Shown piece after piece: positions 3,388 through 51,586 of a DNA stretch of 64,000 nt. Position 1 is the stretch's first letter. Each line of letters opens with the position of its first letter. The notes under the pieces are model-generated. The model saw only the letters and a list, made by a program, of their open reading frames with translations, did no database searches and was not told the DNA's origin. The stretch is taken from IMG/VR virus record IMGVR_UViG_3300036832_001166, positions 61,433 to 125,432 of that record; one strand, written 5' to 3'. Source of the DNA: a virus. The translations under genes were made by a program, and so were the position numbers.

Positions 3388-4280
3388 TGGCCGTCAGCAA
3401 CCAGGAGTCGAGAAGCGATGGTCTGAAGGTGACGATCTCCGCGTTCGGCAACGGGCTGACCGTCAACAAGCAGGGCCGTCCGCTGCTGCCGCGCCCGTTC
3501 GTGTTCCAGTGCCCGCCGCTGGAGCAGTTCACGATCGCGCACCAGCAGAACTTCGGCACCTACGACACCATCGACGACGACCAGTACTCGCGCCGCGGCT
3601 CGCGTCAGCTCGACACCTGGTCGTTCGACACGCTGGCCATGTACCTCGGCGTCGACGCGCAGGGCCGCTACGAGCCGAGCTGGGTGCCGTACCCGACCCG
3701 CGAGTCGCATGGCTTGCAGTACCAGGCGCCAGAGTGGTACCGCAAGCAGCTCTGGGATCTGCACGATGCCGGGTCGCCGTTCCGCTTCGTCGCCGCGTTC
3801 AAGCGGTCCACAACGATCCGCCGCACGTACGCGACGCTGACCGCCTTCAACGAGGACTACAAGCACGGCGAGGGTGACGTGATCTACTTCAGTGCGGTCA
3901 GCTTCCAGGAGTGGCGCGACCCGGGCGACGCGTCACAACCCAAGCCCCGCGGCTCGGACAAGCTGCCCGCGCACGTGCGCTTCCGCTTCACCGGCGGACG
4001 CTATCTCGCCTATGACACCGAGACGGGCCGGACCATCCCGGCGCGCGGCGGAGCGGGCACGACCATGAACGATCTCGCGCGCTTCTACTACGGCAACGCG
4101 TCAGACTGGCGGCTGATCGCCAAGGCCAACCACCTACGCGGCGGCAGCGGCCTGACGCAGATCTACAAGCACTGGTATCCGCACCGGATCTCGCGCGGCA
4201 AGCCGAACGCCACGATGACGATCCCCAAGCAGCCACACAAGCCCTCTCCGGCCCGTACTGCCCCGGCCAAGGCGAAGTGA
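3387..4280 (+). CDS. Tail tube initiator / LysM-domain baseplate protein
   Basis: LysM-like TMNDLARFYYGNASDWRLIAKAN near the C-terminus; position between tape measure and hub, as in contractile tails. Confidence 0.75.
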   Translation: MAVSNQESRSDGLKVTISAFGNGLTVNKQGRPLLPRPFVFQCPPLEQFTIAHQQNFGTYDTIDDDQYSRRGSRQLDTWSFDTLAMYLGVDAQGRYEPSWVPYPTRESHGLQYQAPEWYRKQLWDLHDAGSPFRFVAAFKRSTTIRRTYATLTAFNEDYKHGEGDVIYFSAVSFQEWRDPGDASQPKPRGSDKLPAHVRFRFTGGRYLAYDTETGRTIPARGGAGTTMNDLARFYYGNASDWRLIAKANHLRGGSGLTQIYKHWYPHRISRGKPNATMTIPKQPHKPSPARTAPAKAK

Positions 4281-4281
4281 C

Positions 4282-5829
4282 ATGGCCGCCACGATCAGCG
4301 CTGCCGAGCGCCACCAGGAGGTCCGCTTTGAGGACATGGTCGTCGATCAGCTTGAGCACACGATCACGACGCCCGACCTCTGGAAGACGCGCGTGCGAGT
4401 GGTGGCCCGCACCGTCGACGGGAACCAGGACATCTCCAAGCTGTGCGACACCCTGAACTGGCAGGACCAGTCCACCGACGATCTGCGCAACATCAACACG
4501 CAGGCGGCGATGACCGGCTCGATCACGCTGAACAAGCCCGCGCTGCGCCAGTACGCCAAGCTGCTGGCCCCAGCGTTCTCCGCGCGCATCGTCAACGGCA
4601 CCGACCGGTGGGGTGCGATGGGGATCGTGATCATCTGCCAGGTCGGCTACGGCAAGCACTACACGAACATCTGGGCGATGCGCGTTGGGCCTGGCTACGA
4701 CACGGGGATCGCGGAGACGGTGACGCTGTCGAGCGGCAGTGACACGCTGAACCTCGCCGACGATCTGTGGACGCTCGCGCAGACCGTCGCCGACTTCAAG
4801 TACACGAAGGGCAAGGTGTCACGCAAGAACGGCTGGCGTTGTCACGAGATCGCCCATGACGTGTGTCAGCGCTACCGGGTGCCGGTCCGCGCGCTGTCGC
4901 AAGGCACCGCCTACTTCTCGATGGCGGCGTCAAGCACGAAGCTGACGTCGCCGGTGCATGTGATTACCCGCGCCTACCAGGAGGAGACCAAGCGCACCGG
5001 GCGCACGTTCATCATCCGCTGGGGAGCGCCCGACAAGAAGTTCCCGTTCGGAGCGCTGGAGGTGGTCCCCATGCGCCGCAACCGCAACCTCACGAAGTTC
5101 CGCCAGCAGCTCCTCGACGCGACGCTCACCCGCAACCAGGCTGTCGGCTTCGCGACCGTGATCCTGGCGCGCGGAACGATGAAGGGGCCGAAGGGCAAGA
5201 AGACGCAGAAGGTCACCGCGACGGTCACCTCAGATGCGGCGATCCGACGGTTCGGGTTCATCCGCAAGACGATCGACTTCGGCACCGTCTCCTCCCGGCT
5301 GGAGCTGCAGATCCTGGCGCAGCGCACGCTCGCGCAGCGCCTGTCGCCGATCCGTACCGCCGAGCTGAACCATCCGGGGATCGCGACGATCCGCCGCGGC
5401 GACGCCGTCCACATTGACCTGCCCGAGGAGGGGTACTCGGACTCGTGGCTGGCCTCGCTGGCGACACCGGGCACCAAGGGCGACCACTCCAAGGCGCTGA
5501 TCGCAGCGCTGACGGCCGCGGAGAAGAGCGACCCGACGATGTTCGGCCTACCGGACCCGACGCTTGCTGCCCAGGCCGCCAGCGCGACGCCTGCCGCGAA
5601 CGCGCCCGCGTTCATGCCGGTCGCCAACCAGGGGATCGCGTTCGTCACCTCTGCCGCGCACTCGGTGTCGGCCGGGAGCTACACGATGGATCTCACGACG
5701 AGCTTCATCGACGTTCTCGACCCGCGCGAGGTGCGGGCGCAGGTGGACAAGACGGTCCGCGCCTGGAAGGCGTCGCAGGCGACGACGCCGTCCAAGACCG
5801 CGAAGGCCAAGCAGGCGAAGAAGAAGTAG
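4282..5829 (+). CDS. Baseplate hub protein (XkdQ/gp27-like)
   Basis: Size, synteny, and motifs such as EIAHDVCQRYRVPV and AIRRFGFIRK...IRRGDAVHI, typical of XkdQ-like hubs. Confidence 0.7.
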   Translation: MAATISAAERHQEVRFEDMVVDQLEHTITTPDLWKTRVRVVARTVDGNQDISKLCDTLNWQDQSTDDLRNINTQAAMTGSITLNKPALRQYAKLLAPAFSARIVNGTDRWGAMGIVIICQVGYGKHYTNIWAMRVGPGYDTGIAETVTLSSGSDTLNLADDLWTLAQTVADFKYTKGKVSRKNGWRCHEIAHDVCQRYRVPVRALSQGTAYFSMAASSTKLTSPVHVITRAYQEETKRTGRTFIIRWGAPDKKFPFGALEVVPMRRNRNLTKFRQQLLDATLTRNQAVGFATVILARGTMKGPKGKKTQKVTATVTSDAAIRRFGFIRKTIDFGTVSSRLELQILAQRTLAQRLSPIRTAELNHPGIATIRRGDAVHIDLPEEGYSDSWLASLATPGTKGDHSKALIAALTAAEKSDPTMFGLPDPTLAAQAASATPAANAPAFMPVANQGIAFVTSAAHSVSAGSYTMDLTTSFIDVLDPREVRAQVDKTVRAWKASQATTPSKTAKAKQAKKK

Positions 5830-18564: not shown

Positions 18565-18841
18565 GCGCGATCGCGATGGAGCCCCCACCCCGATAGGGCC
18601 ACCAAGGGGACCACGGTCGCTCCTCGCCTGGAGCGGAGGCCGTCCGGTAGACCATTGAAGCGCGGAGCTTGTAGCCCGGGAACGGGGTGAAGTGCGTGGC
18701 GCGCTGAGGTCGACGGAGCCCGACGAACTGTCGATGGACTCAGCGTCGGAAGCTCAGGTTTTTCTGCTCCCCAGGGGCAGTAGGCCTAAGCCCTCGCCTG
18801 CCTCGGATCTTGCATCGGAAGGGCCCGACGGTAAGGGGGGG

Positions 18842-18850
18842 TGCTAACAT
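18842..18850 (+). promoter_or_regulatory. Extended -10 promoter for the stand-alone GGY-NN array
   Basis: TGC-TAACAT (TGnTAnnnT) 12 nt upstream of the first GGCCC unit, overlapped by a partial operator. Confidence 0.5.
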
Positions 18851-18862
18851 CGTGTGCGATGC

Positions 18863-18967
18863 GGCCCGGCCAGGCTGGGCTAGGCGCGGCGAGGGAGGCC
18901 CGGCAAGGCAGGGCTCGGATGGGCTTGGCGCGGGAGGAGGGATCGGCCCGATGGTCGCTCCCTCCTC
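18863..18967 (+). ncRNA. Putative guide-like ncRNA: 14 GGY-NN units plus 3' hairpin
   Basis: GGCCC GGCCA GGCTG GGCTA GGCGC GGCGA GGGA GGCCC GGCAA GGCAG GGCTC GGATG GGCTT GGCGC, then stem GAGGAGGGATCGGCC-cgat-GGTCGCTCCCTCCTC. Intergenic. Confidence 0.7.
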
Positions 18968-19442
18968 AACTCTCCAGCCGCTGCTTGAGTCGCTCGATCG
19001 CGGCTTTGGCGGCTTCAACTTCGCCGGGCTCGGCGTTCGCGGACGGGTCGAGCACGCGTTCCATCAGCTCGATCCGGCGTTGCAGCGGGCGGCGTTTGGC
19101 CATGCTGTTGAGCACGTCGTTGACGCTGTCGCGCAGGTACTCCAGCTCTTCGACGAACCGCTCCTCGTCGTACTCGTCGATCACCTTCTCGACGGCGTTG
19201 TCGTATGTGCTGGTGTAGGTGAGGTCGGCCGCGATCAACTTCTCGATGTACCGGATCACCGCGATCAGGTCTTCGGTCTTGCGGTGGTATTGGTCGCGCA
19301 GGCCGGGCCGGTGCCGGTAGCTCGGCTTGGTCGTCCAGCCGTACCATTGCTGGAACGCGGGCTGGGTGTAGATCGACCCTTCGTTCACGTGGTACAGCTC
19401 GCCGTCGATGACCGACCGGACGTAGATCTTCTTGGGCATCAC
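18966..19442 (-). CDS. Hypothetical protein with DUF2786-like C-terminal helical hairpin
   Basis: Good codon usage; C-terminus RIELMERVLDPSANAEPGEVEAAKAAIERL; coupled to the upstream gene. Confidence 0.65.
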   Translation of the reverse strand: MMPKKIYVRSVIDGELYHVNEGSIYTQPAFQQWYGWTTKPSYRHRPGLRDQYHRKTEDLIAVIRYIEKLIAADLTYTSTYDNAVEKVIDEYDEERFVEELEYLRDSVNDVLNSMAKRRPLQRRIELMERVLDPSANAEPGEVEAAKAAIERLKQRLES

Positions 19443-20095
19443 GCCGCCTCGTCGAGTCGGTCTTCCAGCTCGGCGGCCTTGGTGTAGAAGCTGTCGGCCT
19501 CCTCAGGGTTGCCGAGCGCGAGCACGCTGTCGGCCTTGTCGCGCAGCGCCTTGATCTTGTCGCGGAGCTGCTTGTCGCCGCGCTGCGTGTCGATCCCGGC
19601 CACGAGCCGCGTGAGTGCGTCGAGCGCCGAGACGGCGCCGTCGTACACCTCTTCCAGCTCGTTGTCGGGCACCGAGTCCTTCGACCAGTAGATCATCGGC
19701 TGGATCCGCCGGGCGTGCAGCGCCAGCTCCAGCACCTTGCGGCGCTCCTGGATCCAGCGCGAGCGGCTGGACGTGCCCGCTTCCTTCTCCATCCGGCGGT
19801 AGCCGCTGATCTGCGTCGCGAGCCCGCTTAGCTCGTGCTTGGGCCCGCTGGCGGCGCGCTCCTTGTAGGCGATCACGCACCGGATCCCGAACAGGATCGT
19901 CGGCGACAGCGGCTTACGCTCGGTGCCGTCAGCCCGGCGCGCGGGCCAGTCGTCAGTCCCGGCCTTGGACGCGGCCACGATCGCGTCCCGTGGCTTGCGC
20001 CGGATCAGCATCTTCTCCACCCACTCCACCACGGCATCGTCGTGCGCGATGCTGTCGCGGCCCCCGATCAGGGAGGTCCAGTCTCTTGCCATCAT
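19439..20095 (-). CDS. Hypothetical protein with DUF2786-like C-terminal helical hairpin
   Basis: GACCGAGGAG before ATG 20095; C-terminus KIKALRDKADSVLALGNPEEADSFYTKAAEL. Confidence 0.7.
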   Translation of the reverse strand: MMARDWTSLIGGRDSIAHDDAVVEWVEKMLIRRKPRDAIVAASKAGTDDWPARRADGTERKPLSPTILFGIRCVIAYKERAASGPKHELSGLATQISGYRRMEKEAGTSSRSRWIQERRKVLELALHARRIQPMIYWSKDSVPDNELEEVYDGAVSALDALTRLVAGIDTQRGDKQLRDKIKALRDKADSVLALGNPEEADSFYTKAAELEDRLDEAA

Positions 20096-20195
20096 TGTCT
20101 CCTCGGTCTTTGATGCAGGGGGCCGGGCTGCCGGTGCTAGCGGAGCGAGGTCACCCGTCGCTGGCCTAGCAGCGCCACCCCGGCCCTTCCTGCGG

Positions 20196-20915
20196 TTACT
20201 CGTCCTCTTCGCCGTTCGCTTCGGCGCGGAGGGTGTAGGCGGCCAGGGCCTTGTCACCGGCCTGCTTGGCTGCCTTCTTCAGAGCCGAGCGGGCCCGGCC
20301 CTTGAGCGTCGGAAGCTGCCGGGTGAACAGGCCCACCTGCTCAGCGGCACCGACCAGCGCGATCTCGGCCTTGTCGGTCATCGGTCGGATGATCTCGGCC
20401 TCGACGTACTTCGCCTCGTTGGTCAGGAACAGGTAGTCGCCTGCCTTGACCAGCACGAGGTCGTCCAGCTCGTCGCGGACCCAGCGCTGCAGGGTGCCGC
20501 CGTACTTGTGGTCGACCAGCTTCCAGATGTGCTGCTCGGCCTTGTGCCACGCGGTGCGGGCAAGCGCGTCCTGCGCGTCCCACGCGTCGGCGTCGCCGTG
20601 GGGCGGCGGCACCGGCTCGTTGGTTAGCAGCGCTCCCGCGACCAGGTAGCGGTGGATCGGCACGTCGAGCCGCTCCTCCTTGGCCGCCCCGACAACATGG
20701 TCCTGAGCGATCGCGAAGATGGCCTTCTTGATCGCTTCGTTGTCGACCTTCTCCACGGGCGTGATCTTGCTGTCGTCGACGTACGTGAACTCGTACTCGC
20801 GCAGCAGCGCCCGCATCGCCAATGCCTCGGTGACCGAGACGCTGGCGCTTGACCTGACCGCCTCCTCGTAGGCCTGGACGGCCTCCGCGAGGTGGTCCTG
20901 GGATTGTGTAGCCAT
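20196..20915 (-). CDS. Hypothetical helical protein, first gene of the leftward operon divergent from the RAMP-like gene
   Basis: GGAAGGAAGG RBS before ATG 20915; coding-like composition. Confidence 0.75.
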   Translation of the reverse strand: MATQSQDHLAEAVQAYEEAVRSSASVSVTEALAMRALLREYEFTYVDDSKITPVEKVDNEAIKKAIFAIAQDHVVGAAKEERLDVPIHRYLVAGALLTNEPVPPPHGDADAWDAQDALARTAWHKAEQHIWKLVDHKYGGTLQRWVRDELDDLVLVKAGDYLFLTNEAKYVEAEIIRPMTDKAEIALVGAAEQVGLFTRQLPTLKGRARSALKKAAKQAGDKALAAYTLRAEANGEEDE

Positions 20916-21008
20916 GCCCTTCCTTCCTGCCGGTGCGAGGTTGCCCGTCGCTCGGCGGTTGACTCCGGTGCGAGGGCCTGGCTCGGCCCGTCGCTCGGCA
21001 TGGCCGGG

Positions 21009-21058
21009 ACTGTAGCACACGACTTGTTTGACGGGTCGCACGAATCGTGTGCTACAGT
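21009..21058. promoter_or_regulatory. Divergent promoter pair formed by a perfect 14-bp inverted repeat
   Basis: ACTGTAGCACACGA (21009-21022) and TCGTGTGCTACAGT (21045-21058); each arm carries TGC-TACAGT pointing outward. Confidence 0.8.
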
Positions 21059-21152
21059 TCGCCCCCTCGGCCATGCATGGCACGGTAAGGCTGGTACGGC
21101 CGGGGCACATAATGCGAACTGCCTCAATGACGAGGCAAGGGGGCAAACCCAC

Positions 21153-21869
21153 ATGATGAATGGGCCTGTCCGACGGGTGATCCCCGTCGGATACCAGGTG
21201 TACAGGCTGCGGTTGGATGGACAGTCGCCGCTTCTGATGAACTCGTCCGAGTACGACCGGGCGAGCGACACATACCGAGCGTTCAAGGCGCTCGGCAGCA
21301 AGCGCGGCAAGACGATCGAGGACGAGCTACGTCTCGGCGAGCTGGAGTTCCACCTCGGGCTGCACTACGACGAGAAGGTCGGAGTGTTCATCCCCGGGAT
21401 CAACCTCAAGGAGCTGATCCGCTCCGCCGCCACGAAGTACCGCAAGGGCGAGGAGATCCGGCGCAGCCTGATCGTGCCGGACTACCGGATCCCGCTGATC
21501 TACGACGGCCCGCGCACGCCCGCGGAGCTGTACGCGCAGGGCTATTACGACACGCGCATGGTCGCGAACGCTGGCGCCGGTTCCGGCCGCGTGCCGAGGA
21601 CACGACCCGCGTTTGAGGAGTGGGCGATCGAGACCGACATCGCGTTCGATCCGGAGGATCTCGACGACGACCTCGTCCAGAACGCCATCGACCGCAGCAC
21701 GAAGTACGGCTTCGGGGATGGGCGCTCGATCGGCTTCGGCGCGTTTGAGCCGACGTTGACATTTCTCAGGCGTCAGTCGAAGGTCAGCAAGGCGGATGCG
21801 GTCAAGGCTCCGAACGGCCGCGCGAAGACCAACCTGGCGGCGGCGACGTCGCGGATCCTGAGTTCGTAG
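21153..21869 (+). CDS. Solitary RAMP/Cas7-like RNA-binding protein (Vipr-like candidate)
   Basis: N-terminal strand YRLRLDGQSPLLMN and C-terminal glycine-rich loop YGFGDGRSIGFGAF (GxGxxRSxGxG), hallmarks of the RAMP fold. No other cas gene or CRISPR array in the window. GGY-NN arrays begin at its stop codon. Confidence 0.7.
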   Translation: MMNGPVRRVIPVGYQVYRLRLDGQSPLLMNSSEYDRASDTYRAFKALGSKRGKTIEDELRLGELEFHLGLHYDEKVGVFIPGINLKELIRSAATKYRKGEEIRRSLIVPDYRIPLIYDGPRTPAELYAQGYYDTRMVANAGAGSGRVPRTRPAFEEWAIETDIAFDPEDLDDDLVQNAIDRSTKYGFGDGRSIGFGAFEPTLTFLRRQSKVSKADAVKAPNGRAKTNLAAATSRILSS

Positions 21870-22043
21870 GCCTTGGCGCGGTAGGGCGCGGCCCGGCGGG
21901 TTCGGCACGGACGGCTCGGTTGGCCAGGCCCGGACCGGCAGGGCTCGGCCGGGCGAGGCTCGGCACGTCCGGCTAGGCGGGGCATGGCACGGCACGGGTC
22001 GTTCTATGCGGGGGCCGGTCGAATGATCGGCCTCCTGCGTAGA
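21869..22043 (+). ncRNA. GGY-NN array 1 (about 26 units) with 3' hairpin
   Basis: GGCGC GGTAG GGCGC GGCCC ... GGCAT GGCAC GGCAC GGG, then an 18-bp stem with one bulge and a GAAT loop (22003-22043). Confidence 0.75.
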
Positions 22044-22046
22044 CAC

Positions 22047-22278
22047 GGCTGGGCGCGGTTGGCAAGGCTCGGATGGCGTGGACTGGCTAGGCTCGGAACG
22101 GTTGGGCGTGGTAGGCGAGGCGGGCGAGGCGAGGCGGGCAAGGCCCGGCTTGGCGAGGTTGGTAAGGCGGGGTACGGCATGGCAGGCTTGGCACGGCGTG
22201 ACATGGCGGGGCAATGCCCGGCGTGGCACGGCAAGGCACGGCACGGGATCACCGGCAGCCTTCGGGCTGCCGGTGATC
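22047..22278 (+). ncRNA. GGY-NN array 2 (about 41 units) with perfect 3' hairpin
   Basis: GGCTG GGCGC GGTT GGCAA ... GGCAA GGCAC GGCAC GG, then GATCACCGGCAGCC-ttcg-GGCTGCCGGTGATC (22247-22278) followed by ACTTT. Confidence 0.75.
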
Positions 22279-22311
22279 ACTTTCGTCTGCGGCCGGTCGT
22301 AGACTCACGCT

Positions 22312-22836
22312 GTGATCGAGTTCGTGGTTCTCGGCAGGCCAGTCACGAAGGGTTCGACGACGTCGTTCGCTGCCAAGCGGAAGGACGGCACGCTCGTCAC
22401 GCGCGAGAACGGCAACCCGGTGGTCGTGACCCGCAACGCGTCCGGCGCCCGCGGCCGCACCTGGGAGAACGCCGTTGCGAGCTGCGCCCTGGAGGCGCGC
22501 GAGCTGGCCGGGGGCCGCATCGCCCGCGGCGAGCCGGTCGGCATCGAGGTGGTCTTCTTCCAGCCGCGGCTCGCCTCCCACTTCGGCACCGGCCGCAATG
22601 CGTGCAAGCTAAAGGACTCCGCGCCGCCGTTCCCGGCCACCCGGCCGGACGTCGATAAGTACCTGCGCGCGGTGCTCGATGCGCTCACTTCGGTGCTCTA
22701 CGCCGACGATGGACAGGTCGTGACCGTCCGCGCGGAGAAGCGGTTCGGCGATCCGGCGCGCGCGGAGATCCGCTGCTGGGTAGTGTCTGCGCTACCGGTC
22801 GACGGTCAGCTTGGCTTGGAGCTGGCGGTCGCCTAA
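22312..22836 (+). CDS. rusA: RusA-family Holliday junction resolvase
   Basis: FVVLGRPVTKGS; RPDVDKYLRAVLDALTSVLYADDGQVV. Confidence 0.85.
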   Translation: MIEFVVLGRPVTKGSTTSFAAKRKDGTLVTRENGNPVVVTRNASGARGRTWENAVASCALEARELAGGRIARGEPVGIEVVFFQPRLASHFGTGRNACKLKDSAPPFPATRPDVDKYLRAVLDALTSVLYADDGQVVTVRAEKRFGDPARAEIRCWVVSALPVDGQLGLELAVA

Positions 22837-36977: not shown

Positions 36978-37576
36978 TCACCGTGACCGACACACCACGC
37001 ATCTGGATCGCCGATCTCGCCGCCTACAACAACGGCGTGCTGCACGGCCGGTGGGTTGATGCGACCGACGCCGACGAGCTGAACGAGGCCAAGGACGCGA
37101 TTATCGCCTCCAGCCCCATCGAGGGCGCGGAGGAGTGGGCCATCCACGACTACGACGGCTTCGGCGACTTGACCTACAAGCTCGGCGAGTACGCCAGCTT
37201 CGACACCGTCGCGAAGATCGGCGCGCTGATCGAGGAGTACGGCGACGAGTTCATCGCTTGGGTCGACGCCGTCGAGCCCGACCTGGAGGACATCGACGAG
37301 CGCAGCTTCCAGGAGGCCCGCCGCGGCGCCTGGGACAGCGAGGCCGACTGGGCCCGCGACCGCGTCGAGAGCCTCGGCTACGAGGGTGTCCAGCCCGGCG
37401 AGTACGTCCCGAAGGAGCGCGGTGGCTGGAGCAGCAGCGAGGGCGCGATCGACGTCATCGACCTGCTGCTGAACCACCTCGATCTGGACATGGTCGCGCG
37501 TGACTGCAGCGCCAACGGCGAGGTGGACTTCGCGACCGTCAACGGACAGCTTTACGCGTTTGATCCGAACGCGTGA
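36974..37576 (+). CDS. ardA: ArdA antirestriction protein (acidic DNA mimic)
   Basis: RIWIADLAAYNNGVLHGRWVD...EEWAIHDYDGF...LGEY..F; very Asp/Glu-rich. Confidence 0.9.
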   Translation: MITVTDTPRIWIADLAAYNNGVLHGRWVDATDADELNEAKDAIIASSPIEGAEEWAIHDYDGFGDLTYKLGEYASFDTVAKIGALIEEYGDEFIAWVDAVEPDLEDIDERSFQEARRGAWDSEADWARDRVESLGYEGVQPGEYVPKERGGWSSSEGAIDVIDLLLNHLDLDMVARDCSANGEVDFATVNGQLYAFDPNA

Positions 37577-37596
37577 CCAACTGCGGATGGGGGCAC

Positions 37597-37668
37597 CGGG
37601 TGAGCGGGGCGGCTCACCCGGACGCAGACCAAGCGGGAGGGCCGCGCATCCCCGTGCGCGGCCCTCAC
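37597..37668 (+). terminator. Twin hairpins after ardA
   Basis: CCGGGTGAGC...GCTCACCCGG and GAGGGCCGCGCA...TGCGCGGGCCCTC inverted repeats. Confidence 0.45.
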
Positions 37669-37686
37669 CTCACCCAACCAGGAGAC

Positions 37687-40600
37687 ATGATGATCAGAGA
37701 TGAGCTGAGGGACGCCGCCGTGGCGGTCGTCCAGGAACGCGCCGCCGCGGCGCTCGCAGACGCGGAGGAGCGTCACGTCCGCACCGAGTACATCGAGGCG
37801 TACCAGGTGGCGCACGTCCTCCAAGGGCGCGGGCTGCTCACACACCCCGACCAGGACAGCAAGAGCTGGACCCACAAGGAGGCTGCGCACCGGTCGATCG
37901 ACGGCAAGGCCAAGCGCCTGCTCGACGAGGCGGCCGCCGACGGGCGGATCCTGCGCTTCTCCTCCCGCGACGTCAAGGCGCTGCCCTGGCTGGACGGCTA
38001 CCCCCGGTCGCTGAGCGGCAACTCGGTTGGCTACACCACCCCCGAGCTGTATGAGGCCGCGCAGGCCGCCGTGGCCGCCCGCGAGGAGCGTGAGCGCCTG
38101 GAGCTGGAAGTCCTGACCGACCTGCTCGACCATGCCGACAGGCTCGGCATGCCCAAGCCGGTCAAGGCCAATCGGACGACCGTGACCTACGACGTCCACG
38201 GCCTGCACGACATCGTCCGGCTCCTGGAACCTGACCAGGCCTAACACAAGATTTGCGCTACACTGAGCGCACCACTACGCACCGACCGAGGAGGAAGCAA
38301 TGAGCAAGGTCATGGGCGCCGACACCGTCATCGCCCTCAACAAGACAGCCGTCCGCAAGAAGTACAACCGCACGCTGAGCAGCAAGTTCATCGAGCGGCT
38401 CGCCGACGACGGCGTCAACATCGTCGTCACGCACCTGCTACACGGCGACGGCGAGTATGTCCGCACGCTGACGATGTTCAAGCTCGCCGACCGCGACGAG
38501 CCCGTCGAGGGCTGGCTCGACGTCAGCCTGGAGGACTTCAACCGGCTCGCTGACGTCGAGCGCCAGCCCGACGGCCAGTACACCGTCAAGGCGGCGACGT
38601 GACCCCCGACGAGGATCTGATCCGCGCCGAGATCGACGCCTACCGCGCCGAGGCACGCGCGTTCCGCGCCGAGACAGCAGCCCACCGCGCCGAGGTTCGC
38701 GCCTTGGCCGGGGAGATGGTCGCGTGGCGCGAGCGGTTGGAAGCGCACCTCAACCGTCAGGACGAGGACATCGCCACGATCATCCGCACCCTCATGGAGA
38801 TGCGAGGCGACGGCGGCGGTGCGCAGTGAGGGTCGTGACGCACATCCGCCACGACGGCGGCATCCGCTACGGCAACAGTCAGGGCACGCACGCGTGGTGC
38901 GGGCTGCGGATCGACATCCGCCCCTGGATCACCGTCGAGGACGCCCACGTGCGCAGCGGCCGCGGGCTCGACAGGAACGTGTGCGGCAACTGCAAGGCGG
39001 CGCTGAAGAGGGGCACCGCGAGGGCGGTGACCGGCCAATGACGGCGAGCCCTGCCGCGGCCGCAGGAGTCTCCCGGGCGCTCGACCGCGCAGGCCTGAAG
39101 CGCGCTCGCGAGATCCAGAAGGGCGTCGAGCTTCAGGGCTACTACGCCAGCCCGGCGGGCGACCACGTGCGCGTCGAGTACGTGCCCGGACCGCTTGTTG
39201 ACGAGGACGCAGCACCTGGCGTTACCGCAGACGGCCTTCAGCGCTGCCAGGCAGCGCTGACCGAGAAATACGACGTGCAGCAGAGCACAGCGATGCTCGC
39301 CTATCCCGGCGAGATGCGTGCGGGACAGGTACTTGAGGTCCGCAGCTCGCGTTGGGAGCAGCGCGGCGAGGACGGTGCGTCGTGAGGATCGCCCTGGGCA
39401 CCGTCGAGCTGAGCCTCCGCCAACGCGCGGCGATCGGGTTCTACTACGGCACCGCGATCGCCTCCCGCGACACCTGCCGCCACTTCATCATCGGCAACGG
39501 GCTGGGAGCCATCGACGACCAGATGGCGACGCTCGACGCCTGGGAGGAGCAGTACGGCCCCTGGCGCGGAGACGCCACGCACCCCCGAGGAGGAGGAGAA
39601 CAACCATGCTGACCGATGACCAGCGCGCTGCCCGTGAGCTGGGCGTAGAGCGTGTCGCCGGGCCGTACTTTCTCGATGCGAGATCCGTCGAGCTGAAGCG
39701 GGCGAAGGCTCTGCTTGATCGCGCGGGCGTTCCCTACGTAGATCTGGGGTGGGAGAAGGGCACCCGCGCGCTCTACGTGCCTGAGGGCTCGGACCTGTCC
39801 GGAGTGTTCGCATGAGCGTCAGGATCCTGACCGGTCACGAGCAGGGCGACAGCGGCTACGAGACCGCGCTCGCGTGTCTGTTTGACAGCGTGACCGGCTG
39901 GGCGTTCGGCCCGGTGTTCCGCCGCGGCGAGGACGGCGAGTCGCCCGAGGACGCAGCGCAGGCGTTCCTTGACTGGTTGCCTGAGGACGCCCGCACAATC
40001 CCCGCGCGCGAGCTGGAGGAGCTGTACGGCCGCTGGCTGAACGAGCGCTGAAGCCCGTTTGACCCGGCCGACCCGGCCGGATTTACGCTGGCCTTATGTG
40101 GCGGATCCTTGCGGATCCTTTGTGTGGGCGCCGCGGAGGGCGGCAGTAAGGTTGGCGCGTGAGCGACTACTTCGAACGCGTCGTCATCCCCGACCCCGTC
40201 GAGCCGCCATGCCCCGCCGCTGCCCTGGTGTCGGAAGCGGCTGGGGGCACCGGCTGCGTCTGCCGCATCACTCGGAACCTGATCGACAGCCGACGGAACC
40301 CTTCGACACTGCGGGCCTACTGCTTCAGCTCGGACGGCTATCGGACGTGCCCCACGTGGCGCGCCGACCGCGAGGAGCTGTGGCGCAGCAAGACGATCCG
40401 CGACCTGCTGAACCGGAAGGGCGATCTGGTCTCCGGACACCCGGAGGATCTTCAGCGGACGCAGGGACTGGCGCTGGCGACCGAGGCACAGGAGCGCGAG
40501 GCATGGCTACTGCAACGCGAGCGCGAGCGCTAGCCACGCACGTGTACGTGACCGACGAGGTTGCCTTGCTGTACGTCCTGGAGATCGGCGCGCCGGACGC

Positions 40601-48502: not shown

Positions 48503-51500
48503 ATGGATTGGGCGACAGCAGCGGCGATCGTGGCGGACAGGACACCGAGCCTGTCCGATCCACCCGACGCGCCAGGGGATGACCATGAGTTCTGGCAGCG
48601 GGTCAAGACGCTCGTCGACGGCGACGGCGACAGCATCGCGCTGAGCGAAGCCGAGCGCTACGACGAGATCCTGCACCCGCGCGACCGCAGCGGCAAGTGG
48701 ATGGCGAAGCTGGGGCTCTCGCATCTCCGCGAGGTCGGCGGAGCGCCGCGCGACGAGCTGCTCGGCAAGATCCCCAAGGACATCGACTACGTCGCCGCCG
48801 AGACCCCGGAGCGGATCAAGCAGGCGGTCGAGCAGGCAGGCGGGAAGACCGAGGAGCTGATGGTCCGCGACCGGCTGGTCGGCGTCCGCGCTACGCACCC
48901 GGCGTTGCCCGTCGGTGGCGTCGAGATCGTTCCCCCACGCGTGGAGGCGAGCACCGGGCCGGGGCGACACGACTTCGAGATCGTGCCGCACCCGGACCTG
49001 TATAGCCACGCCGAGCCGGGCCACGCTATGCCTCGCCACGCCCCACCCCGCCGAGCCGGGCCAGACCTCGCCGGGCCAAGCCCAGAGCAGGTTAGCCGGA
49101 TGCTGGCCGACGACGCGCAGCGTCGCGACTTCACGATCAACACTCTGCTGAGAGATCCCGCGACCGGCCAGCTCACCGACCCGACCGGCCACGGCGAGCA
49201 GGATGCGCGCAACCGGGTGTTGCGCATGGTTCACGACACGAGCTTCCAGGAGGACCCGCTGCGCATGCTGCGCGGTGCGCGCTTCGTCGCCCAGCACGGG
49301 CTGGAGCCCGACGCCGGGACGCTGGCAGCGATGCGCCGCGACTCCGGCGGGATGACCGCGCTGACCAAGAAGGGCGTCTCCGGGACCGTCCAGGACGAGC
49401 TGCGCAAGCTGCTGATGGGCGAGCACCCGGGCAAGGGTCTGCGGCTGATGCGCGACACCGGCATGTTCCAGACGCTGCTGCCCGAGCTGGCGCCGATGGT
49501 CGGATTTGATCAACGTTCGATCTACCACGAGCACGTGCTGGACGAGCACACGTTCAACGTGATCGACGAGCTGGCGCGGATGGGCGCGAGCCACGACGCG
49601 CGGCTGGCGGCCCTGTTTCACGACAGCGGCAAGCCGCTGACCGCCAACCTCAAGCCTGACGGCACGTACCGCTTCCACTCTCACCCCGAGCACGGCGACC
49701 ACGCCGACGTCGGCGCTGACATCGCGCGCCGCACGCTGAACCGCCTGAACTACCCGGCGGACACGATCAGCCACGTCACCGGGCTCGTCCGCGAGCACAT
49801 GCTCACCGCCGTCGAGAAGCCGACGCCGGTCAAGGCCCGCCGTCTGCGCGCCGCTCACTCCGACCGGTTCCTGACCGACCTGCTGGACCACAAGCAGGCC
49901 GACATGGAGGGCCACGGCGAAACGATCGCCAAGAGCCTGGAGGGCGTCCACAAGCTGCGCGACCTGCTGGCTGAGAACGCGCAGGCGCCGCGGTCGCTGA
50001 AGGATCTGAAGATCGACGGCCGCGACCTGATCGCGCAGGGCGTCGAGCCCGGGCCGCGGCTGGGCGCCATCCTGCGCCAGCTCCTGACCGAGGTGGTGCT
50101 CAACCCGGACCTGAACCGCCGCGAATGGCTGCTGCAGCGCGCCGAGCGCCTGGCCGTCACGCCGATGCAGGAGAGCGTCTACTCCGAGCTGCTGCATCCG
50201 CGTGACCGCGCGGGGAAGTGGATCGCGGGACGCCGGAAGCTTGTCGACCTGGACGCTATCGCCAGCCGCGCGCACGCCGGGCAGGTCGACAAGTCGGGGC
50301 GCCCGTACATGGAGCATGTGCGCGCCGTCGCCGACTCGGTCAAGCCCGAGGCGCGGCCGGTCGCGTTCATGCACGACGCGCTGGAGGACACGCAGATGGC
50401 CCCGCAGGATCTGGAGGGGGTCCTGGAGCCGCACGAGATCGAGGCGGTCAAGCTGCTGACCCGGCCGAAGGGCGACGGGATGAGCTACGACGCCTACATC
50501 GAGAAGATCGCGACGGCGCCCGGCCCGGCTGGGGAGCTGGCGCGCGAGGTCAAGGCCGCTGACCTGAACCACAACCTCGGCCGGATGAGCAACCTCGACG
50601 CGAAGACGCAGGCGCGGCTGCGTCCGCGCTACGAGGCGGCTATCGCGCGGCTGTCACCGGCGCCGCACCCGTTTCAGCAGGCGGGCGACCCGGAGAACTT
50701 CGCGGGCGTCACCCGCGAGCAGGCCGAGGCGCACCTCCGGCGGCTGTATGAGATCAGCCTGCGCTCACCCGAGCATGCCGCCAATCTTGCGTGGTACGAC
50801 ACGCAGCATGCGCTGATCCAGGATGTGGCCGCAGAGCACGGCGTCGACCCGGTCACGATGGCAGCAGCGATCTCGGCGACGTCGCCCCAACTCGCGTGGG
50901 ATCACACGTCGAAGGCTGGTGTGTTCACCCGCCCGAACCTGAGCCTGGCGCTCAACGCCCTGCGGCTCGCGCGCGCCTTCCCGGACGAGCCCGCGCCGCT
51001 GCTGGTCGAGCGGCTGCTGGCGGCGGCGGAGGGCCAGAAGGGCCCGAGCGAGGTTCAAGGTCTCGGCAGCTCGGTGGAGAAGGCGATCAGGATCTTTCGC
51101 GGCGAGGATCCCGACAAGGTGCTGACCGCACCGAAGACCCGGTCGTTCTACAACAACCTCGTCTGGCCCGAGCTGAGCACAACGGTCACCGTCGACGCGC
51201 ACATGGCGCGCGCCGGGCTGGGGATCCTGGAGAAGAAGGGCTACGCGCAAGCGGACAAGGCCATCGAGGAGAAGGCCAAGGGATCCGGCTACACGTGGAT
51301 GGCGAACCGCATCGAGGCGATCGCGCGCGAGTTCGGCGTGCTCCCCCACCAGGCCCAGGCCGCGATCTGGGTCGAACGCAAGCGCGAGTCAGACGAGGTC
51401 GAGCGGCTGGCCAAGGAGGCCGAGAAGAAGCGGTGGGCGAGCCTGACGAAGGAGGAGCAGGCGGCGGAGCGCGCGGCGAAGAAGGCCGAGCGCGAGCGCA

Positions 51501-51586
51501 AGAACGCCGAGAAGGCAGCCAAGAAGGAGGCGCGCCAGGCCGCCGGTCTCAAGGTCGCCAAGCGCGAGCACTACAAAGGCTCATGA
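48503..51586 (+). CDS. Polyprotein: CCA tRNA nucleotidyltransferase with HD domain + (p)ppGpp-hydrolase-like HD domain + HhH-GPD glycosylase-like domain
   Basis: VGGAPRDELLG..PKDIDY, DDAQRRDFTIN, FQEDPLRMLRGARF, ALFHDSGK, LKIDGRDL..G..PGP; AHAGQVDKSGRPYMEH...MHDALEDT...VKAADLNHN; AWYD...SATSPQ..W...KTRSFY.N...VTVDAHM...QAAIW. Confidence 0.85.
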   Translation: MDWATAAAIVADRTPSLSDPPDAPGDDHEFWQRVKTLVDGDGDSIALSEAERYDEILHPRDRSGKWMAKLGLSHLREVGGAPRDELLGKIPKDIDYVAAETPERIKQAVEQAGGKTEELMVRDRLVGVRATHPALPVGGVEIVPPRVEASTGPGRHDFEIVPHPDLYSHAEPGHAMPRHAPPRRAGPDLAGPSPEQVSRMLADDAQRRDFTINTLLRDPATGQLTDPTGHGEQDARNRVLRMVHDTSFQEDPLRMLRGARFVAQHGLEPDAGTLAAMRRDSGGMTALTKKGVSGTVQDELRKLLMGEHPGKGLRLMRDTGMFQTLLPELAPMVGFDQRSIYHEHVLDEHTFNVIDELARMGASHDARLAALFHDSGKPLTANLKPDGTYRFHSHPEHGDHADVGADIARRTLNRLNYPADTISHVTGLVREHMLTAVEKPTPVKARRLRAAHSDRFLTDLLDHKQADMEGHGETIAKSLEGVHKLRDLLAENAQAPRSLKDLKIDGRDLIAQGVEPGPRLGAILRQLLTEVVLNPDLNRREWLLQRAERLAVTPMQESVYSELLHPRDRAGKWIAGRRKLVDLDAIASRAHAGQVDKSGRPYMEHVRAVADSVKPEARPVAFMHDALEDTQMAPQDLEGVLEPHEIEAVKLLTRPKGDGMSYDAYIEKIATAPGPAGELAREVKAADLNHNLGRMSNLDAKTQARLRPRYEAAIARLSPAPHPFQQAGDPENFAGVTREQAEAHLRRLYEISLRSPEHAANLAWYDTQHALIQDVAAEHGVDPVTMAAAISATSPQLAWDHTSKAGVFTRPNLSLALNALRLARAFPDEPAPLLVERLLAAAEGQKGPSEVQGLGSSVEKAIRIFRGEDPDKVLTAPKTRSFYNNLVWPELSTTVTVDAHMARAGLGILEKKGYAQADKAIEEKAKGSGYTWMANRIEAIAREFGVLPHQAQAAIWVERKRESDEVERLAKEAEKKRWASLTKEEQAAERAAKKAERERKNAEKAAKKEARQAAGLKVAKREHYKGS
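48959..49082 (-). ncRNA. Antisense GGY-NN array (16 perfectly phased pentamers) plus 3' hairpin, inside the CCA-enzyme coding sequence
   Basis: Minus strand GGCTT GGCCC GGCGA GGTCT GGCCC GGCTC GGCGG GGTGG GGCGT GGCGA GGCAT AGCGT GGCCC GGCTC GGCGT GGCTA (49082-49003); 14-bp stem with one bulge at 48995-48959. Confidence 0.65.

Follow-up and report, generated by a model that had tools for sequence, protein, structure and literature searches.

A probable VIPR locus with long guide arrays and four-nucleotide repeat units in a complete 125-kbp phage genome

A vipr gene and its neighborhood

The phage genome (IMG/VR record IMGVR_UViG_3300036832_001166) is complete, with 125,432 bp, terminal repeats, and 68.6% G+C, and the window, the whole stretch of 64,000 nucleotides that was analyzed, is its second half. 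Two tracts of GG(Y)NN repeat units lie on the plus strand between the end of an open reading frame (ORF) at 21869 and the start of a RusA gene at 22312 (Table 1). The stop codon of the ORF is overlapped by a first, degenerate repeat unit (GGCCTT), and no gene intervenes between the ORF and the arrays.

A phmmer search with the 238-residue product of this ORF matched PDB entry 36pp_D, “SUSP1 Vipr protein,” at an E value of 1.1e-15 over residues 18 to 199. The product is 29.5% identical to the copy in the phiSUSP1 genome and 31 to 38% identical to hypothetical proteins from phages of Gordonia and Mycobacterium. Its AF2 model (pLDDT, 87) returned Csm3, Cmr4, and type VII Cas7 as the top Foldseek matches. 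In SUSP1, residues D177, R138, R179, and K33 read G1, G2, and Y3 of the repeat and hold the target backbone; R138, D177, R179, and K33 are conserved here as R151, D189, R191, and K45, and among 40 family members no variation occurs at R151, D189, or R191. Conservation extends to the G-loop (GD-R) and the thumb arginine, and a glycine takes the place of W178, which in SUSP1 stacks on G2. Based on this homology and the predicted fold, we identify the product as a Vipr RAMP protein, which is predicted to coat vrRNAs. The family comprises >200 metagenomic proteins of ∼237 amino acids, among which are Vipr proteins of 68 to 74% identity; a search of 401 Solirubrobacterales genomes for close relatives with a homologous array recovered no homolog.

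VIPR (Viral Interference Programmable Repeat), reported for the first time in 2026 (bioRxiv 10.64898/2026.04.26.720920), silences DNA in a CRISPR-like manner. It consists of vipr, which encodes a minimal RAMP protein (RRM core, G-loop, and thumb), and vrRNAs built of GGY/NN repeats, with a structured 3′ tail, a rule by which 1 nucleotide (nt) of the target is skipped, and targets in rival phages (10.64898/2026.04.26.720920). Since the upstream gene matches both SUSP1 Vipr and the Cas7/Csm3-like fold, the region from 21869 to 22278 is very probably the downstream vrRNA region of a VIPR system. Systems of this kind are already known; the locus adds a further example, in which a few details of the guides are unusual.

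The locus has no vap accessory gene next to it, unlike the type II VIPR systems of Escherichia phage SUSP1 and a P. fulva prophage; such a gene is typical of VIPR but not universal (10.64898/2026.04.26.720920). The flanking genes are not common to the five loci of the family that we compared, and sister phages without VIPR likewise carry the downstream RusA gene. The module occupies a variable slot (window positions 18976 to 22312), which corresponds to positions 70000 to 72580 of the sister phage G002. The slot is flanked by a gene that is 96% identical in G002 (window positions 18966 to 19442, minus strand) on one side and by RusA on the other. In the same slot, G002 carries ∼2.1 kb of unrelated DNA, and array 0, described below, is absent from G002 as well.

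In the vipr leader (21011 to 21101), a promoter-like TTGACG/TACAGT pair, which a consensus promoter scan left unflagged, is bracketed by a 13-nt inverted repeat (CTGTAGCACACGA ... TCGTGTGCTACAG). About seven degenerate GGYNN units follow on its 3′ side (21063 to 21101). The leader could combine an operator with the remnant of an upstream vrRNA, or it could be a leader bound by Vipr.

Table 1. Positions of the vipr gene, repeat arrays, hairpins, and targets, and of vrRNAs with T-arm-like tails in other phages
Feature	Sequence	Position	Strand	Description
vipr	Window	21153..21869	+	238 aa, RAMP/Cas7-like; ATG, AAGGGGG ribosome-binding site, GC3 frame signal
Array 0	Window	18863..18967 (units 18863-18934)	+	12 pairing units, GGCTT GGCGC GGG, hairpin
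Array 1	Window	21875-21995	+	25 units; ends GGCAT GGCAC GGCAC GGG
Array 1 guide part, units 1-23	Window	21875..21985	+	NN match to L134
Array 1 4-nt units	Window	21895-21898, 21909-21912, 21918-21921, 21967-21970	+	
Array 1 handle	Window	21986..21998	+	GGCAC GGCAC GGG; units 24-25 match L134 1/2 each, chance level
Hairpin 1	Window	22003..22043	+	18-bp stem, one bulged U, GAAT loop
Array 2	Window	22047-22244	+	41 units; ends GGCAA GGCAC GGCAC GGG
Array 2, units 1-27	Window	22047..22175	+	No target found; six 4-nt units; NN letters AT-rich
Array 2 guide part, units 28-39	Window	22176..22234	+	Includes 4-nt unit 29 (22181-22184), degenerate GACAT and TGCCC
Array 2 handle	Window	22235..22247	+	GGCAC GGCAC GGG; 1/4 bases of units 40-41 matched in each RusA target
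Hairpin 2	Window	22247..22278	+	Perfect 14-bp stem, UUCG loop, then ACTTTCGTCT
Own RusA codons 2-13	Window	22315..22349	+	19/24 against the guide 65-135 nt upstream
RusA target	G001	101825-101859	-	24/24
RusA target	G002	72582-72616	+	24/24
T-arm-like vrRNAs	L130	3185-3250		
T-arm-like vrRNAs	L131	2242-2300, 2361-2420, 3698-3740, 3816-3880		
T-arm-like vrRNAs	L132	2954-3025, 3085-3145		
T-arm-like vrRNAs	L133	2354-2410		

Repeat arrays and their hairpins

The density of GGYNNGGY is 13 to 15 per 100 nt at the tracts against a window mean of 0.34, and a six-unit pattern found 22 matches in the phage genome and none in the reversed control. By both counts, the tracts are not a product of chance. 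Parsing and folding confirmed the two GGY-NN tracts of the first-pass annotation, with their shared GGCAC GGCAC GGG end and stem-loop. Its unit count held for array 2, whereas array 1, put at ∼26 units, has 25 plus the degenerate GGCCTT at 21869 to 21874. The same build of units, GGG, and hairpin recurs at 18863 to 18967 on the plus strand and at 49082 to 48959 on the minus strand. The former, array 0, is a third vrRNA of this kind, 2.2 kb upstream of the vipr start.

Over the 68 five-nucleotide units of arrays 0 to 2, positions 1 and 2 are each G in 67 (99%); position 3 is C in 59, T in 5, and A in 4 (Y in 64, or 94%); and positions 4 and 5, with entropies of 1.96 and 1.87 bits, come close to maximal variability. 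A further 12 of the 80 units (15%) are only 4 nt long. That such units break the 5-nt phase had been noted before, but the listing then given was short of the number present: they are GGCG, GGAC, GGTT, and GTCC in array 1; GGTT, GGAT, GGTA, GGCG (twice), GGTT, and GGCA in array 2; and GGGA, the seventh unit of array 0.

A GG-rich strand and ORFs that overlap the tracts might also suggest a Gly/Ala-rich repeat that is coding, a neutral microsatellite, or a DNA-level element, for instance a G-quadruplex or an origin, and phage Florinda has a look-alike tract with a coding-sequence annotation. We regard these readings as having a negligible probability. Codon-position G+C bias is absent across 21870 to 22300, and so the ORFs there are spurious; the 4-nt units, moreover, break the reading frame. 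Also against these readings stand the confinement of variation within the arrays to NN, the matches of the NN strings to foreign genes far beyond chance, and the adjacent Vipr gene. Given the Vipr homology and the target matches, we also set aside the ideas of an RNA that acts as a protein sponge, a binding site for a TRAP-like ring, a G-quadruplex, and an origin. Rfam returned no family at threshold in the window, and relaxed E values gave noise only.

The tract in Mycobacterium phage Florinda (NC_028889.1, ∼37481 to 37734; L001 3951 to 4204) has ∼49 GGCNN units and is annotated as the CDS gp59, “hypothetical protein.” It is also present in phage Quico, and its sub-blocks end in GGCAT GGCA|GG. 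A Vipr profile found nothing in the whole Florinda genome, although it found gp34 of phage LittleE at 5e-41; in this cluster F mycobacteriophage, the tract therefore probably represents a solo, or orphan, vrRNA array.

Both tracts close with stable predicted hairpins. RNAfold placed the first at 21997 to 22050 with −39.6 kcal/mol (z = −5.2; 0 of 200 shuffles were as stable), and no U tract follows it. The second reaches −42.0 kcal/mol (z = −6.0 against shuffles) and is followed by a weak T tract, which makes it the only terminator-like site flagged in 18600 to 22500; these predictions suggest that hairpin 2 is likely the terminator of the vipr-vrRNA unit. Among the three or four hairpins there is no common sequence beyond GGG, such that the stems have structure in common but are unrelated in sequence; arrays 1 and 2 additionally share GGCAC GGCAC and a trailing CAC.

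The minus-strand array has 16 in-phase GGYNN units (49003 to 49082) followed by GGG and a hairpin that extends to 48959, and it lies antisense inside a large plus-strand ORF (48503 to 51586). It had no convincing target among the sequences compared here.

We also observed vrRNAs of 8 to 14 units next to the Vipr homologs of phages Trine and MakoManhole (Gordonia) and LittleE and prophiBWHA-1 (Mycobacterium). Their tails are ∼60 nt long, carry a tRNA T-arm-like GGTTCGA(N)TCC enclosed by an outer stem, and end in GAGCAC or GAGCGC. A tRNA identity of these actinophage tails found no support from ARAGORN or Rfam. Both the T-arm-like tails and the invariant tail of SUSP1 are unlike the hairpins here, and the vrRNA tails at five IMG/VR loci of the Vipr family are unrelated to them. 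The closest relative fetched, L154 (IMGVR_UViG_3300047160_009060), encodes a Vipr that is 68% identical. Directly after its vipr gene is one uninterrupted array of ∼127 units (690 nt; 3712 to 4402), the last two of which form the 5′ arm of a terminal hairpin, and a further 27-unit array lies upstream. The arrays of the five family loci and of phage Florinda had no target among the DNA compared here.

Natural targets and the pairing register

We decoded the arrays by the published NNx one-base-skip rule, taking the last two letters of each unit and one wildcard per unit. Exact windows of nine units were searched against IMG/VR, and matches were then extended locally. The first-pass proposal that the tracts are guide-RNA genes was borne out, with vipr directly upstream and NN letters that match phage genes perfectly over 12 to 16 consecutive units.

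Array 1 matched one contig, L134, at 3779 to 3852 on the minus strand. The match covers 44 of 50 bases over all units and 42 of 46 over units 1 to 23, which read one contiguous, in-register stretch of 69 nt; units 8 to 23, the 16 units ahead of the handle, are perfect. Outside the nine units searched, the other 14 guide units matched at 24 of 28 bases (binomial P = 3e-10), and shuffled guides reached at most 29 of 46. This is a single target contig, with four imperfect units among units 1 to 7. Within a protease-capsid fusion gene, the target falls in the stretch for the Peptidase_S78 domain (...IPYGVESRDLGGWKEVIEPGAL...), and a check of the reading frame placed the skipped bases at wobble positions. 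L134 has no nucleotide similarity to the VIPR phage, and no S78 protease was found in the VIPR phage. Sequence comparison thus identifies the target of array 1 as the HK97-type prohead protease (Peptidase_S78) of an unrelated high-GC phage.

Units 28 to 39 of array 2 match RusA codons 2 to 13 at 24 of 24 NN bases in two large contigs of sister phages, G001 and G002. G002 has 80 to 91% identity over 72 kb, and from both G001 and G002 the whole module, vipr and arrays alike, is absent. Between the two RusA targets, 6 of 12 skipped bases differ and 0 of 24 NN bases do. Array 0 gave the same picture, with 24 of 24 NN bases matched in five related IMG/VR contigs (L159 to L163), among which 8 of 12 skipped bases and 0 of 24 NN bases are variable. 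Variation among targets is thus restricted to the skipped bases. In addition, nine units of the RusA guide match the RusA start (FTVIGKPVT) of an unrelated low-GC provirus (L137 382 to 407; 44% G+C), indicating that the guide sits on a widely conserved protein motif.

Within the phage's own genome, the best matches were 19 of 24 bases in its RusA gene, 19 of 24 in its helicase gene (array 0), and 27 of 46 for array 1. None reaches 80%, the cutoff of the VIPR paper, although its own RusA, at 79%, is borderline. The RusA protein differs from that of G002 by four amino acids, all in the first nine residues, and differences at codon positions 1 and 2 number 5 of 24 in the footprint and 24 of 322 elsewhere (Fisher P = 0.04). 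The mismatches to the guide thus stem from amino acid changes concentrated in the footprint. The position of this borderline match, at the very start of the adjacent RusA gene, might indicate a guide that times the phage's own RusA expression and is not directed at rivals. We consider such self-regulation very unlikely, given that the sister phages match at 24 of 24 while the five mismatches of the own copy are spread over the footprint and arise from the four clustered changes. Published VIPR systems, moreover, have no self-targets of ≥80%, and perturbation of NN abolishes silencing (10.64898/2026.04.26.720920).

The targets also bear on the 4-nt units, for which a role in separating sub-guides or in diversifying the code had been suggested. 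The matches run straight through them at 3 bases per unit, contrary to that suggestion: of the six 4-nt units inside mapped targets, five pair perfectly as GG+NN, and the target advances 3 bases. A model that reads the last two letters and advances 3 matches 24 of 24 bases in array 0, 42 of 46 in array 1, and 24 of 24 in units 28 to 39 of array 2. A strict 5-nt register matches 14 to 16 of 22, 25 of 44, and 22 of 22, respectively; the array 2 segment cannot separate the register models, because its sole 4-nt unit comes second. Models in which 4-nt units serve as spacers, or move the target on by 2, gave 14 to 17 matches in array 0, 24 to 25 in array 1, and 20 to 21 in array 2. The fixed-register, spacer, no-skipped-base, and GGY+N readings were rejected for their poorer overall fit. 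Because the GG+NN reading is in register in all three mapped cases, the 4-nt units are not separators; on this pairing pattern, we read them as ordinary units that lack Y, pair with two target bases, and advance three. By analogy with the SUSP1 structure, in which Y is flipped out into the pocket of the neighboring protomer (10.64898/2026.04.26.720927), it is plausible that Y does not set the pairing register, which would make 4-nt units mechanically feasible. Units of 4 nt are not mentioned in those portions of the published VIPR texts that were consulted for the grammar.

Ahead of GGG, the final two units are off target in every mapped case, while the units preceding them are on target. This agrees with the conserved 3′ handle proposed in the first-pass annotation. 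In array 0, units 13 and 14 (GGCTT GGCGC) are unmatched in all five target contigs, and arrays 1 and 2 end likewise (Table 1). Being non-pairing, these last two units point to a constant handle.

The idea of two discrete guides did not survive the mapping. Units 1 to 27 of array 2 neither continue the RusA match nor gave a target of their own, and the guide segments in array 2 therefore number two or more. Exact 9-unit scans with these units gave only chance matches that did not extend, whether against IMG/VR (units 3 to 11 and 17 to 25), metagenomes (units 7 to 15), or GTDB genomes (units 15 to 23). They gave no signal above a shuffled-guide null in the own and two sister genomes and no peptide-level match.

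These 27 target-less units are the most degenerate ones, and satellite solo vrRNAs have been published that redirect Vipr to decoy sites. It might be proposed accordingly that the tracts, or this part of them, only soak up the phage's own Vipr or that of a rival. Three guide segments, however, find perfect natural targets among phage genes that are essential or conserved, and we judge a decoy or sponge role highly improbable.

How the tracts are divided into RNAs admits a more serious alternative. They may be cut into several vrRNAs of ∼10 to 14 units, of which the hairpin marks only the last, such that the locus yields more than two RNAs. According to the legend of fig. S18 in the VIPR paper (10.64898/2026.04.26.720920), other VIPR types have such staggered arrays, in which abutting, tail-less vrRNAs with 1-nt overlaps derive from one uninterrupted run. 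In array 2, two or more mutually unrelated guide segments follow one another without an intervening hairpin, the mapped guides of arrays 0 and 2 are each 12+2 units long, and the ∼127 uninterrupted units of L154 raise the prospect that this Vipr subfamily uses a staggered, tail-less mode. Array 1, on the other hand, reads its single contiguous target over 23 units with no internal non-pairing units, and no internal punctuation motif was found. Cutting at the 4-nt units is excluded, since it would leave pieces of only 2 to 10 units. On balance, we consider this division possible but rather unlikely. As far as that legend describes staggered arrays, the tracts resemble them in their long GGYNN runs with more than one guide (array 2 and L154) and in that the Vipr subfamily here appears to favor long runs; they differ in that the runs here are short, each with its own hairpin, and that array 1 has one contiguous target.

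A possible looser guide grammar

The locus shares with type II VIPR a homologous Vipr RAMP (E = 1e-15), 5-nt GGY/NN repeats downstream of vipr, and a variable tract with a structured 3′ end. The NNx code, skips at wobble positions, targets in rival phages, and the lack of a strong self-target are also shared. It differs in its 238-residue Vipr of ∼30% identity with a basic C-terminal extension and in the 15% of units that are 4-nt GG+NN. The tracts between hairpins have 25 and 41 units, with mapped pairing segments of 12, 12, and 23 units, whereas published vrRNAs have 9 to 16 repeats (10.64898/2026.04.26.720920). Each RNA here closes with two non-pairing units, GGG, and a plain hairpin (by minimum free energy folding) of its own sequence, unlike the invariant tail with its pseudoknot in the SUSP1 clade (10.64898/2026.04.26.720920). 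Array 0, at its distance from vipr, is dispersed in the manner of the solo or orphan vrRNAs that F5 satellites and VIPR-null phages carry (bioRxiv 10.64898/2026.10.15.759431); unlike those phages, however, this one keeps its own vipr, and arrays 1 and 2 are adjacent to it. Further afield, class 1 CRISPR crRNAs on a Cas7 backbone are alike in that RAMP protomers (here with a structural match to Csm3/Cmr4) polymerize on the guide and periodic flipped bases interrupt guide-target pairing. The present system, in contrast, has no CRISPR repeat-spacer array, cas genes, or adaptation module, sequesters three of five guide bases, and skips one of three target bases.

In the published structure, each repeat binds one protomer and the GGY bases are flipped out (10.64898/2026.04.26.720927). 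If the SUSP1 work applies here, the tracts would be transcribed together with vipr, one Vipr protomer would occupy each GG(Y), and the resulting filament would display the NN pairs, bind double-stranded target DNA, and block transcription of rival-phage genes. The phage's own gene copies would escape through their mismatches (19 of 24 bases paired). The two non-pairing units, GGG, and hairpin may act as a 3′ cap or handle, with hairpin 2 possibly serving as a terminator as well, and units 1 to 27 of array 2 would represent at least one more guide segment whose target is absent from the databases.

It is quite possible, though in our judgment slightly short of probable, that this Vipr subfamily (∼237 amino acids, soil actinophage type) follows a looser grammar in which several features occur jointly: Y-less units in register, a 23-unit guide with a 69-bp footprint, a generic 3′ cap, and a guide beside the phage's own, recoded copy of its target. 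The generic cap may consist of two non-pairing units, GGG, and any stable hairpin in place of an invariant tail. The guide and the recoded own copy beside it may together form a “weapon plus resistant allele” cassette directed at sister phages.

The VIPR guide grammar has so far been worked out on one enterobacterial clade, and this locus, which belongs to a distant, high-GC branch, adds three natural pairs of guide and target, together with in-register 4-nt units and a non-pairing two-unit handle. Published VIPR callers, as far as the available text describes them, assume a fixed 5-nt register; callers of that kind would interrupt these arrays wherever a 4-nt unit occurs and overlook the targets. 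Target prediction here should leave out the last two units, and a VIPR footprint can far exceed 12 units. The decoded matches document what this phage appears to aim at, namely, the prohead protease of a rival and the helicase and RusA genes of its sister phages.
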